Assembly: GCA_964016885.1 (NCBI GenBank) | Contig: CAXHJY010001331.1 | Span: forward strand, 1 to 50,063 | DNA length: 50,063 nt | Reading direction: 5' to 3' | Source of the DNA: Eledone cirrhosa | Taxonomy: Eukaryota | In this document: positions 1,337 through 38,577 of the stretch, piece by piece | How positions within the stretch are numbered: position 1 is the stretch's first letter | Layout of the letters: every line of letters begins with the position of its first letter | The notes under the pieces: model-generated | Told to the model about the DNA's origin: nothing | Databases searched by the model: none | The model's input: only the letters and a program-made list of their open reading frames with translations | Made by a program: the position numbers and the translations under genes

Positions 1337-1616
1337 ATATACAATATTAATAAATGGAAACTATATTTATAAAACCATATTTATTTCATTATATATATTT
1401 CAAGGATACCAAGTTTACATTATGGTATGCCCTGATGGCCCCCCATAGACAACGGTCAATTTTTTAAAAGGGGTACGTCAATGTCTATTTATAAACTGTA
1501 TATATTGTATTTTGTCTGATGAAGGCATACCTTAATGTACTTGGTATCCTTGAAAATATATATAATGAAATAAATATGGTTTTATAAATATAGTTTAATT
1601 TATTAATATTGTATAT
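1337..1616. mobile_element. Penelope-like pseudo-LTR remnant in inverted arrangement, copy 1
   Basis: ~93-bp inverted arms (1337-1431 and 1524-1616) around a ~92-bp spacer; the right arm overlaps a hammerhead motif. Inverted pLTRs with hammerheads are typical of PLEs. Confidence 0.65.
1508..1572 (+). ncRNA. Minimal type-I hammerhead ribozyme motif, copy 1
   Basis: tattttgt-CTGATGA-aggcatacc/ggtatcctt-GAAA-atatatata-atgaaata. Stem I uses G-U pairs, stem II has one C-C mismatch, and there is an extra A after GAAA relative to copy 2. Confidence 0.65.
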
Positions 1617-1703
1617 CTACTCCAAATATTTGTCGAGTGCTTTATATCAGTTATAAAAATATTTGCTTTGTTGTATCCCAACAATTTAAATAAAACTTTT
1701 GCA

Positions 1704-4454
1704 TATATACATATATATATATACATATATATATATACATATATATATATACATATATATATATACATTATATATATATAACATATATATATATACATAT
1801 TATATATACATATATAATATACAGATATATATATAACATAATATATATACATATATATATATACATATATATAATATATATATACACATATATATATACA
1901 TATATATATATACATATATATATATATATATATATATACATATATATATATACATATACATATATATATATACATATACATATATATATATACATATACA
2001 TATATATATATACATATATATATATACATATATATATATACATATATATATATACATATATATATATACATATATATACTACATATATATACATATAATA
2101 TACATATATATATATACATATATATATATACATATATATATATACATATATATATATACATATATATATATACATATATATATATACATTATATATATAT
2201 ACATATATATATATACATATATATATATACATATATATATACATATATATCATATATATATATATACATATATATATACACATATATATACATATATATA
2301 TACATATATATATACATATATATATACATATATATATACATATATATATATATATATATACATATATATATATATATATACATATATATATATAGTATAC
2401 ATATATATATACATATATATATACATATATATATACATATATATATACATATATATATATATATATACATATATATATATATATATACATATATATATAC
2501 ATATATATATACATATATATATATATATATATACATTATATATATATATATATATACATATATATATACATATATATATATATACATATATATATTACAT
2601 ATATATATACATATATATGATATCATATATATATATATATATATACATATATATATATATTATATATACATATATATATATACATATATATACATATATA
2701 TACATATATATATACATATATATATACATATATATAACATATATATATATATATATACATATATATATACATATATATATATATACATATATATATACAT
2801 ATATATATACATATATATATACATATATATATACATATATATATACATATATATATACATATATATATATATATATATACATATATATATATATATATAC
2901 ATATATATACATATATATATATACACATATATACATATATATACATATATATAATATATATATATACACATATATACATATATATATACATATATATACA
3001 TATATATATACATATATATACATATATATATACATATATATATATACATATATATATATATATATATATACATATATATATACATATATATATACATATA
3101 TATATAACATATATATATACATATATATATACATATATATATACATATATATATACATATACATATATATATACATATATATATACATATATATATACAT
3201 ATATATATATATATACATATATATAATACATATATATATATACATATATATATACATATATATATACATATATATATACATATATATATATATACATATA
3301 TATATACATATATATATACATATATATATACATATATATATATACATATATATATATTATACATATATATATATATACATATATATATACATATATATAT
3401 ATACATATATATATATATATACATATATATATATACATATATATATATATACATATATATATATATATACATATATATATATATACATATATATATACAT
3501 ATATATATACATATATATATATACATATATATATATATATACATATATATATATATACATATATATATACATATATATATATATACATATATATATATAT
3601 ACATATATATATATACATACATATATATACATACATATATATATATACATATATATATATATATATACATATATATATACATATATATATATATATACAT
3701 ATATACATATATATATACATATATATATACATCATATATATATATACATATATATATATACTATATATATATATATATATATACACATATATATATACAT
3801 ATATATATATATATATATATATATACACATATATATATACATATATATATATATATATATACATATATATATATACATATATATATATATATATATACAT
3901 ATATATATACATATAATATATATATACATATATATATACATATATATATATATATATATATATATATACATATACATATATATATACATATATATATATA
4001 TATATATATATAAAAATATACATATATATATACATATATATATACATATACATATATATATACATATATATATACATATACATATATATATATACATATA
4101 TATATATATATATATACATATATATAATATACATATATATATATACACATATATATATACATATATATATATATATATACATATATATATACATATACAT
4201 ATATATATACATATATATATACATATATACATATATATATACATATATATATATATATACATATATATATACATATACATATATATATACATATATATAT
4301 ACATATATACATATATATATACATATATATATACATATATATATATACATATATATATATATATACATATATATATATATATACATATATATATATATAT
4401 ACATATATATATATACATATATATATATATATACATATATATATATATACATAT
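1704..4454. repeat. Degenerate (TA)n/(TATATAC)n microsatellite tract
   Basis: 2.7 kb of TA with C interruptions on the + strand. Confidence 0.97.
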
Positions 4455-4565
4455 ATTGTTATATTTGGGGAGGGTCATATTTGCGTAATATTGCCATAAT
4501 TAATAACAGACCACACTCACTGTTTGGTTGGTTTTCGCTTCTCGCTGTCTTTTATATATATATAT
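4455..4565. repeat. Dispersed repeat family fragment (possibly non-autonomous Helitron-like)
   Basis: attgttatatttgggagggtcat core shared with 1103, 5850 and 9149, and inverted at 4782; ends in ttttatatatata like the 9126-9308 copy. Confidence 0.55.
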
Positions 4566-4781
4566 CTGCGATCTAACTTACTCCGTCCTCAATGTTGCCA
4601 TTGACTGACATATATATATATATATACACATATATATATATATATATACACATATATATATATACACATATATATATATATATACACATATATATATATA
4701 TATATACACATATATATATATACACATATATATATATATATATATATACATATATATATACATATATATATACATATATAT

Positions 4782-4863
4782 ATGACCCTCCCCAAATATA
4801 ACAATATCTGTTTCGACACACGATTTCATATAAAAAACCTCGCAAAACTAATTCATCGCCGCT
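4782..4863. repeat. Same dispersed repeat family, opposite orientation
   Basis: atgaccctccccaaatataacaatatctgtttcgacacacgatttca is close to the reverse complement of tgaaatcgtgtgttgaaaccgatattgttatactttgggagggtcat (9126-9172). Confidence 0.8.
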
Positions 4864-36500: not shown

Positions 36501-36931
36501 CCATTCTAGTCCCCCACTAATAGCAAGGAGCGGGACGTCCCTAGAAAAGTCTCCAGACGATGGAAGAAGTCCGGCCGCATTGACCCGAAAGGGCCGTAGG
36601 CGGCTACCAACCTAAACGCTCCGCCTTTACCACTGCCAAGGTCCAGAACCACTAGTCGACCCTCCGGGTCCAAATGTACCATCTGTGTTGCGAGACCCAG
36701 ATGTTTTTGCAGCAGAACGACAACTCCACCCCCACCTCCGGGCTGACAGAGAGATGCGTGCATCTCAAAGTCATCAAAGGCGGGGGCCAGCTGTCGCACG
36801 TTGCTGATCCGGGCCTCGCAAATAACCATCACATCTATACGTTGTGACCTGAGGTCATTTAGAAGCATTACTTGCTTCCAAGTTGAGCCCAGGCCACGCG
36901 CATTTAAACAGCCTACTCTTAGCATAGCCAT
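33515..36931 (-). pseudogene. Tx1-like ORF2 (APE + RT + zf-RVT), multiple frameshifts
   Basis: LNARGL, ICEA, LLVGD, SDHKLV, GPGYWKLN, KSPGLDGLPYELY, NFRPITLLN, LDQSKAFDRVDH, PYADD, CPRC...ETVAHALVHC. Confidence 0.9.
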
Positions 36932-36955
36932 GTTGGTGGTGAAGAGAAAAGGCAC

Positions 36956-38361
36956 TTACCTCTCTGCGTCCCGGGTATCGGGCTGCACAATTTCCATTAG
37001 GGTGGGGATTGGGTTGTTGGGTGGGGTGGTGGTTTGTGGAAGTGTGGGGGCATCAGTGTGTTGTGTGGTTGGGGAGCTTGGAGTTGTGTGGGTGTTTGGG
37101 GAGGGGGTGGGATAGTTTTTTAGGAGGACGCGGTTAATGGGCCCGACGCAGGGGGGACCCACGTCCTCTTTAAAATTGTTTTTTAAAGTTTTATAGGTGT
37201 CCTGTGGGGCCTTAATCATTTTGAGGTGGGGGAAATCCCCTGCCTGGGTGAAGTTAGGCCCTTGTGTTTTTATTAGATTGTTGTTGTACACAATGTTTAA
37301 CAGTTTTTTGTTTCTTGTGTTTATGTATGTGTATGCATGTTTTTGTTTTTGTGTGGTGTTTTTTGTTTGCTGTTGTTGTGAGCTCTTTTGTGTTGGTGTC
37401 AGTGTTATGTTTTGGGGAGGGTTTTTTTTCATTTGTGTGTCTGAGGTGTGTTTTCTTTTTTTTCTTTTGATTGTGTGGAAGTGCTCCTCCTCGTCTGACG
37501 ACGAACTAGGGTCATCTTCCGCGTTGGAGGGGAGGGGTATATGTTTTTTGAGTGGAGGGGATGGGTTGGACATTGTTTTGTTTTGGTTTGAGCTGTGGTG
37601 GTTGTTTTTGTAGTGGTAGTTGTGGTGATTGTGTTGGTTGTGCAGTTGTTGGTGGTGTAGGCAGGGATTGGGGTTTTCTTATTAAGTTGGGGACAGACAG
37701 CCCTCAGGTGACCTCTGGTTCCGCAGAGGTAACACGAGGGCCGTCTACCCTCAACGGTAATGTTGATGAAGGTTAGATCATCCAGTATGACGCGTTCAGG
37801 GATCTGGGCGATCCTTTCGGGCCTCATTTGAACTACAAGTTCGAGGCTCGTTCCACTGAACGCGTCACCCGATGCCTTTCCCATGGACACCAGCATGTCA
37901 TCCTCCAGGTCCAGAAAACCTGTCAAAACCCACCATGTGTCCATAATCGGCAGGATGGTGTGGATTTTTATTTTTTGTGTTCTTCTACCCATGTACGTAG
38001 GGTAGAAGGTGTATGCGGTGGATGTGATTGGTTTGATGGACAGTTTCACTGCTGTGTCCCTGTCCTTCATGAGAATGGATAGACTCCCGTAGAGTCTATC
38101 CTTCTGAATGAAGGTGATGTCCTTCATGACGTCTTTTAAAACCAGCTCTATCTCGCTCTGTGATGGTTGAGCTGGTTTTTTACTTTTGTTCGAGATTGTC
38201 CTAAACATGACCGTGTTTAGGAGTCTCTGGCTTTTTAGTTCCGGGGGGGAATGGATTGTGAATGAACCATTTTCTCCGTACACTATATATTTTTTCGCAT
38301 CCGCCAGTAGCTCCTTCGCTTTGGTTATATCTACTGGCAGATAGTCGAGGGTTTTCCTCAT
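36956..38361 (-). pseudogene. Tx1-like ORF1 (gag-like, zinc knuckle) with low-complexity C-terminal part
   Basis: VEGRRPSCYLCGTRGHLRAVCP knuckle; T/P/K-rich tail and KRKKRK continue in a second frame (37573-36956). Confidence 0.8.
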
Positions 38362-38370
38362 ATGACTCCA

Positions 38371-38577
38371 GTTCCCCAGTGAATTAACAACCCAACAAGG
38401 AACTGGGCATATCAGAGTATTGACAATATCATACACCTAAACAACATATGTACTTGTCTATACCATACTAATTCAAACTGCCTGAAGAGGTCACAGCCAA
38501 AGATGGCTGTCACTGAAATATATATAGCAGTAATAAACGAAGCTAAATTTTAATCATTTGACTTTTATTTAACTTTA
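38371..38577 (+). mobile_element. PLE 3'-end remnant (ORF tail + pLTR with hammerhead)
   Basis: Reads FPSELTTQQGTGHIRVLTISYT* (weak resemblance to PLE endonuclease C-termini), followed ~35 bp later by a hammerhead and AATAAA. Confidence 0.6.
38477..38531 (+). ncRNA. Minimal type-I hammerhead ribozyme
   Basis: actgc-CTGAAGA-ggtcacagcc-aaagat-ggctgtcact-GAAA-TATATATA-gcagt; perfect 5-bp stem I, 10-bp stem II with one C-C mismatch and a G-U closing pair, palindromic TATATA stem III, AUA triplet. Confidence 0.82.

Follow-up and report, generated by a model that had tools for sequence, protein, structure and literature searches.

Six minimal hammerhead ribozyme motifs, probably from Penelope-like elements, among TA microsatellites of Eledone cirrhosa

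Hammerhead motifs of the window

The window analysed here is the whole of a 50,063-nucleotide stretch of Eledone cirrhosa DNA (contig CAXHJY010001331.1 of assembly GCA_964016885.1, forward strand, positions 1 to 50,063). About half of it is TA microsatellite; the islands between the arrays are pieces of retroelements, and the long open reading frames (ORFs) translated outside the arrays are all of retroelement type. Six minimal type-I hammerhead folds lie in the window. We judge it probable that they are 3'-end (pseudo-long terminal repeat, pseudo-LTR) stubs of about five families of Penelope-like elements (PLEs) set in TA microsatellites, and that they would cut RNA only when two copies pair through a short palindromic helix III. 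The six sites are as follows.

Site 1, 1508-1572, plus strand: minimal type-I hammerhead; stem I of 8 bp, stem II of 8 bp, loop III ATATATA with an extra A
Site 2, 6275-6335, plus strand: duplicate of site 1; stem II of 8 bp, loop III TATATA
Site 3, 7772-7809, minus strand: stem I of 5 bp, stem II of 3 bp, loop III GTAC, U17; the weakest motif
Site 4, 9307-9351, minus strand: stem I of 5 bp, an unpaired G, G10.1-C11.1, stem II of 6 bp, non-palindromic loop III GAAC
Site 5, 13488-13530, minus strand: minimal hammerhead; stem I of 6 bp, stem II of 4 bp, loop III CTAG
Site 6, 38477-38531, plus strand: stem I of 5 bp, stem II of 10 bp, loop III TATATA; the best-folding motif

The window contains 18 CTGANGA heptamers. 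A strict type-I descriptor (stems I and II of at least 4 bp each) passes five sites, compared with a mean of 0.01 and a maximum of 1 in 1000 block-wise dinucleotide shuffles of the 25.9 kb outside microsatellites. A looser descriptor (stem II of at least 3 bp, with a longer loop III), relaxed after site 3 failed the strict form, passes exactly six (shuffle mean 0.018, maximum 2), and no further site with a single-mismatch core was found in the window. Thus, the six motifs, which an earlier note on this DNA had already placed here, are real and well above chance, and they are of a known kind: as that note proposed, they are minimal type-I hammerheads such as those described for PLE pseudo-LTRs, most of them without an ORF. 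The hammerhead model search that it suggested gave a divided result, since the descriptor finds all six sites and the Rfam hammerhead families match none at gathering score. Site 5 aligns over its core with Rfam Hammerhead_HH9 (17.6 bits, E 0.089; gathering score 52). Targeted Rfam scans of sites 4 and 6 returned no hammerhead match, and sites 1-3 were covered only by whole-window scans; when these are ranked by E-value, microRNA models on (TA)n dominate among the 150 of 1005 matches listed.

All six sites have the core CUGANGA...GAAA with U16.1 and H17 (U17 at site 3; one extra A at site 1) and an open stem I of 5-8 bp. Helix II, which is enlarged to about 7-8 bp in PLE hammerheads of this type, has 8, 8 and 10 bp at sites 1, 2 and 6, 6 bp at site 4, and 3 and 4 bp at sites 3 and 5. 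An unpaired base stands between A9 and position 10.1 in sites 4 and 5 and is absent in sites 1-3. The pair G10.1-C11.1 is present in site 4, and in site 6 it is G-U in the window and G-C in 39% of the depth of sequencing run X1 (see below). Loop III is palindromic at sites 2, 3, 5 and 6, is interrupted by the extra A at site 1 and is not palindromic at site 4, so that the five palindromes in six reported earlier stand for the first four only. Helix III homoduplexes of -3.2 to -4.8 kcal/mol are predicted at five of the six sites, and the predicted cuts fall after positions 1564, 6329, 7777, 9312, 13494 and 38526 (sites 1-6, respectively).

The stems had been described as completely different between families around a common core, and this had been taken for covariation. 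The core is indeed kept, but sites 1 and 2 are one local duplicate, and sites 4 and 6 have in common 15 identical bases, which run across the core and into the first part of stem II; their alignment scores 43 where shuffled sequences reach up to 44, so that any kinship is tentative. MAFFT gave no alignment across the unrelated motifs, and the compensatory changes seen come from relatives and not from comparing unrelated families.

Site 4 and its PLE coding sequence

The features that accompany site 4, with a seventh locus related to it, are:

9613-10467, minus strand: 5'-truncated PLE ORF with reverse transcriptase (RT) thumb, CX4CxxC linker and GIY-YIG nuclease (Neptune/Nematis type)
9098-9172, minus strand: 3' tail of the site-4 element, with a 21-codon ATG frame
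4449-4862, no strand assigned: decayed locus related to site 4, with head-to-head inverted ends (4449-4480 and 4780-4811)

Read along the minus strand, the order is TA array, truncated ORF, stop at 9613, 262 nt, site 4, ATG at 9172, short tail and TA again, so that site 4 lies 262 nt past the stop of a co-oriented PLE ORF. The closest relative of this ORF is a protein of Octopus bimaculoides (56% identity), which makes an octopus the probable host. Its CX4CxxC linker, which follows the RT thumb and precedes GIY-YIG, is conserved in an alignment (A1); Pfam did not detect GIY-YIG in it, and its Neptune/Nematis type was set by linker and domain layout rather than by a tree, the RT core being missing from this copy. 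A tblastn search of the window with 143 PLE proteins and 88 locus ORFs gave matches only at 9616-10464 and 18895-20981, and none beside sites 1, 2, 3, 5 and 6. Two sites had been thought to accompany co-oriented PLE ORFs; only site 4 adjoins one, the second PLE ending 5.3 kb from site 5.

Relatives of the site-4 ORF were found at 15 metagenome loci, of which 11 were read downstream and four were excluded for a short flank or a partial match; none was found in viral or prokaryote contigs. A hammerhead-like motif follows the match by 120-145 nt in four of the 11: it is intact in L008, has one core mismatch in L001, is altered on its GAAA side in L006 and, read by eye, carries a U3-A8 core variant in L002, a variant that has already been described (PMC4209133). 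One pair of stem II is A-U in one of L001 and L008 and G-C in the other, a compensated change. L002 is similar to site 4, and between these two stem II is kept with changed pairs and C3-G8 is swapped for U3-A8; two-sided compensatory changes were seen only between metagenome relatives.

L008 is a nearly whole RT-GIY-YIG element in which the start of its own RT ORF is repeated past the hammerhead. The 21-codon frame in the tail of the site-4 element is likely such a repeated ORF start, by a likeness of the peptides judged by eye; BLASTP of the tail peptide against the L008 N-terminus gave no alignment, and a motif match linking the two is circular, the motif having been composed from both sequences. 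The decayed locus at 4449-4862 has the site-4 tail in common, with the same short ATG frame (4782, plus strand) as at 9172, and has a hairpin without a core at the expected position of the hammerhead.

ORF-less stubs of sites 1, 2, 3 and 5

The structures around these four sites are:

1334-1431, minus strand: inverted 5'-truncated copy of the site-1 element, from stem II onward, without the CUGAUGA core; pairs with 1524-1619
6098-6194, minus strand: inverted arm of the site-2 cassette; pairs with 6289-6384
7606-8199, minus strand: ORF-less stub with site 3 and, at its 5' end, a perfect palindrome with 31-bp arms (8138-8199)
13349-13847, minus strand: ORF-less stub with site 5, bounded by 27-nt inverted ends (13349-13375 and 13821-13847)

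Sites 1 and 2 belong to one cassette of about 350 nt, present in two copies 4.76 kb apart with 96.6% identity over 358 nt. Each copy consists of a 97-98-nt inverted copy starting at stem II, followed by a forward copy about 80 nt longer; the extra A in loop III of site 1 is absent from its own inverted arm. A transcript through both arms is predicted to form one long hairpin, in which the pairing probability of stem II falls to 0.0, and the inverted arm would thus mask the ribozyme. Inverted ends are found at sites 1, 2, 3 and 5 and at the 4449-4862 remnant.

Several CCAAT/ATTGG boxes lie upstream of site 3 at 7900-8030 on the minus strand and are possibly an internal promoter. Upstream of site 5, a segment of 64-190 nt containing a ATGCAAAT octamer is present in four copies (10912-10975, 13530-13718, 14010-14197 and 18415-18481), all beside TA arrays, as a partial tandem duplication or an assembly artefact.

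The second PLE of the window

18870-20981, minus strand: broken Hydra-type PLE with RW[R/K], DKT, CxCX5C, CxxC and CxH motifs (the last two around E and N); no intact hammerhead

This PLE, recognized by the Hydra-clade motif definition of PMC8557442 (section 11), is co-oriented with site 5. Among 15 Hydra-type relatives, nine have an intact hammerhead 254-374 nt past the match, with a helix III of 7-8 nt, unlike sites 3 and 5. No hammerhead with at most two core mismatches was found after the PLE (18691-19030); this copy is decayed or cut short. Site 5 was not assigned to it, given the 5.3-kb gap and the different helix III, and a nucleotide search against 30 PLE loci gave no clade assignment for the ORF-less sites.

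Hydra-type PLEs bearing hammerheads (L016-L030) were noted inside contigs filed as bacterial genomes or symbiont assemblies, where they are likely contamination from animal hosts; one of them, L025, has two different hammerheads 270 nt apart. No Hydra-type relatives were found in viral contigs.

The high-copy element of site 6

38359-38575, plus strand: high-copy element of about 200 nt with site 6, its 5' end truncated in this copy and its 3' end T-rich
33198-38358, minus strand: 5'-truncated L1/Tx1-type element (zinc-knuckle ORF1, AP endonuclease, RT, zf-RVT, poly-A); context only

The site-6 element is joined head to head with the antisense L1/Tx1 element, and beyond the TA array lies an RT fragment of another kind. 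When contigs of four public sequencing runs were aligned to 38000-38578 at 80% likeness, 1987, 28, 0 and 5 contigs were recovered (0 in run X6). The summed depth of run X1 is 8,900-22,800 up to 38359, 104,000 in the next bin and 283,000-1,042,000 beyond it; in run X5, the depth is 14 on L1/Tx1 and 91-341 on the site-6 element. The site-6 element thus has 20-80 times the contig depth of its neighbour. Among the loose contig ends listed, clusters occur at 38358 and 38564, and these together with the depth step indicate that site 6 lies in a separate element of about 200 nt, far commoner than L1/Tx1. Scaled to a 5.3-kb X1 contig at depth 10, the family would number tens of thousands of copies or more, summed depth not being a copy number in itself.

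The predicted minimum-energy fold of the site-6 monomer contains both stems I and II. Four variable positions are listed inside the motif, all fold-neutral and none in the core, a comparison of low statistical power: 38514 (G-U to G-C, 39% of X1 depth), 38493 (A-U to G-U), 38501 (in loop II) and 38492 (at an existing mismatch). The exact site-6 pattern had no match in metagenome contigs, and no homologue of the L1/Tx1 ORF1 was found among 827 candidates. Some X5 contigs at 38358-38362 continue leftwards as the reverse complement of the element's first bases; these are fold-back junctions at the palindrome CATATG in other copies.

Two earlier readings of the element's ends were dropped. A target-site duplication that would have ended L1/Tx1 at 38447 gave way to the boundary at 38358/9. 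Priming by the cut end (..AUAUAUA) on (TA)n, as the event setting the 3' end of the element, was abandoned because the main loose end among those listed is 38564 and the depth peak continues unbroken across 38526.

Other features of the window

Several RT fragments in the islands belong to one family, which we take to be RTE-like. RT fragments of a recurring family (38812-39987, plus strand, and related copies) have a PHD-type finger behind the RT domain. The 16 TA arrays between 1 and 48848 all bear C (TACA) and few G on the plus strand, whatever the orientation of their neighbours (488 C and 21 G in the array at 26565-31130). This bias looks like strand-specific long-read error, and array lengths and some local duplications may therefore be inflated. 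The sequence TATGAC stands at the junctions of four unrelated pieces (4780, 8168, 10467 and 38362), three of which adjoin TA repeats; these junctions may reflect microhomology at 5' truncation.

Interpretation and rival explanations

If the motifs derive from PLEs, the PLE protein would nick (TA)n DNA and begin copying the RNA at an internal point just past the hammerhead, as has been observed in vitro for the start of reverse transcription by an Anolis PLE (PMC11167929). Reverse transcription would usually stop early, so that short hammerhead-bearing 3' ends pile up, often gaining an inverted second copy. Traits on record for PLEs include inverted 5'-truncated copies, palindromes at junctions, tails on one side and (TA)n targets (PMC8557442, PMC3846280). 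Helix III would form only between two copies (PMC4209133; review PMC6765202) and would require tandem copies, of which the window has none; cleavage, if it matters, may take place in tandem master copies elsewhere, and the dispersed monomers seen here would be mostly inert. In published work, a single minimal motif of Schistosoma was uncleaved and dimers were cleaved weakly (PMC4209133), and insertion of the Anolis PLE was independent of cleavage, with no RNA-seq ends at the cut site (PMC11167929). Single scattered copies are predicted to cut RNA poorly.

Several observations weigh against an origin in PLEs or against activity of the motifs. PLE coding sequence adjoins one of the six sites, so that at the other five a PLE origin rests on the type of fold and the structure of the ends, and seven of the 11 relatives of site 4 have no complete motif downstream. 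Site 4, the sole ORF-linked site, forms no helix III homoduplex (+1.4 kcal/mol), and modelled active dimers lie 5-12 kcal/mol above the best alternative dimer fold. G10.1-C11.1 is absent from sites 1, 2, 3 and 5, two of these (3 and 5) have a short stem II, and the absence of Rfam matches at gathering score counts on the same side. No inverted end accompanies site 6 in this window, and the conservation contrast across it is weak (in run X1, seven variable places in 118 nt upstream and two in 55 nt of the motif).

It might be that the families without an ORF, and the site-6 family most of all, are non-autonomous elements (SINE-like, that is, like short interspersed nuclear elements, or else non-LTR retrozyme monomers) which PLE proteins multiply in trans from tandem master arrays elsewhere, perhaps via circular RNA. 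This is a tentative proposal, compatible with derivation from PLEs, and the depth of site 6 relative to L1/Tx1 in both X1 and X5 speaks for it, as does the report that monomer derivatives of retrozymes are common and that their PLE origin is argued (bioRxiv 10.64898/2026.07.22.740005). However, the depth climbs towards the 3' end of the site-6 element and other copies extend further 5', as loose ends at 38358, 38433 and 38469 indicate; simple 5' truncation of longer elements would produce this pattern. Since the window holds no tandem pair of hammerhead units, the earlier suggestion of retrozyme-like elements does not hold in this window, and it is doubtful whether passing transcripts are cleaved. 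It is indeed unlikely that host transcripts crossing the region cleave themselves at these motifs, even though all six cores are intact, the site-6 monomer is predicted to form both stems, and sites 1, 2 and 6 have one common helix III sequence on one strand (predicted cross-family pairing of -3.2 to -3.5 kcal/mol). The long ORFs nearby are those of retroelements, the fold of their cassette is predicted to mask sites 1 and 2, no partner lies within 4.7 kb, and the published Schistosoma and Anolis results point the same way. With 60 nt of flank, stem II pair probabilities are mostly above 0.85; those of stem I do not exceed 0.55, or 0.13 in the case of sites 1, 2, 4 and 6.

The hammerhead of site 6 might instead be the 5' end of the L1/Tx1 element, that is, an antisense ribozyme in a non-PLE retroelement, and no microsatellite separates it from the L1/Tx1 ORF1. 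This reading is largely refuted, and very improbable, given the roughly tenfold depth step at 38358/9 that rises further beyond, the 16 X1 contigs in which the hammerhead element continues into other sequence at the L1/Tx1 boundary, and a 1665-nt X5 contig that follows L1/Tx1 to 38358 and then runs into different sequence. Chance matches in AT-rich repeat DNA are the least credible source: none of the 1000 shuffles gave more than two matches, and relatives likewise have their motifs behind a PLE gene. Chance is thereby refuted for the set, and is conceivable only for site 3 taken singly, which passes the loosened descriptor only and has no Rfam gathering match.

The preferred reading is therefore that of PLE stubs, and the lead that it leaves is the abundant family of site 6, together with the helix III common to this family and family 1. 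It is conceivable, if rather improbable, that octopus genomes carry a very abundant hammerhead mini-element of about 200 nt (possibly tens of thousands of copies or more) and that a AUAUAUAU helix III common to unrelated families allows their copies, on different transcripts, to assemble active sites with one another in trans, as a genome-wide RNA-cutting network. A family that is both high-copy and well-folded, like that of site 6, lends itself to tests of cleavage in monomers, dimers and cross-family pairs. As all six motifs lie below Rfam thresholds, standard annotation undercounts such hammerheads.

Comparison with known systems

The motifs resemble the minimal hammerheads described for metazoan PLEs (Cervera and de la Pena 2014, PMC4209133) in type-I topology, an intact core, a stem I of 5-8 bp, a tiny and mostly palindromic helix III, many sequence families per genome, and a prevalence of single, ORF-less copies with one in place after a PLE gene. 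They differ in that G10.1-C11.1 is confined here to site 4 and some copies of family 6, stem II measures just 3-4 bp in sites 3 and 5, and an extra U precedes GAAA in sites 1/2, 3 and 5. Relative to Rfam clan CL00010, the core alignment of site 5 with Hammerhead_HH9 falls far below the gathering score.

The site-4 element and the ORF-less stubs agree with Neptune/Nematis PLEs (Craig et al. 2021, PMC8557442; Arkhipova et al. 2013, PMC3846280) in the CX2-5CxxC linker before GIY-YIG, the (TA)n flanks, the head-to-head inverted ends of which one is longer, and the ORF start repeated after the hammerhead; the layout of L008 is the pseudo-LTR-plus-tail of PMC3846280. In contrast, the copy in this window is 5'-truncated and has no tree placement, and the extension in sites 1/2, of about 80 nt, is longer than the 30-40 nt reported in those sources. 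Non-LTR retrozymes (Cervera and de la Pena 2020, PMC7229834; bioRxiv 10.64898/2026.07.22.740005) are described as short, non-coding, low-GC, high-copy elements with a type-I hammerhead, as is the site-6 element, but the window has no tandem units and its motifs are minimal rather than canonical.

In cephalopods, PLEs have been annotated in Octopus vulgaris, with 31 recently active families, in a paper whose text does not contain the word 'ribozyme' (PMC13282606), and the giant squid genome was reported with 235 Rfam hammerhead-1 matches, to which the text of that report attached no PLE link (PMC6962438). No dedicated report on octopus PLE hammerheads was found among the literature matches listed, supplements lying outside their scope. 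The link between minimal hammerheads and PLEs is already established in many animals and will not surprise a specialist. What the present window contributes to these systems is six intact motifs within 26 kb of sequence outside the microsatellites, one of them belonging to a family at very high copy.

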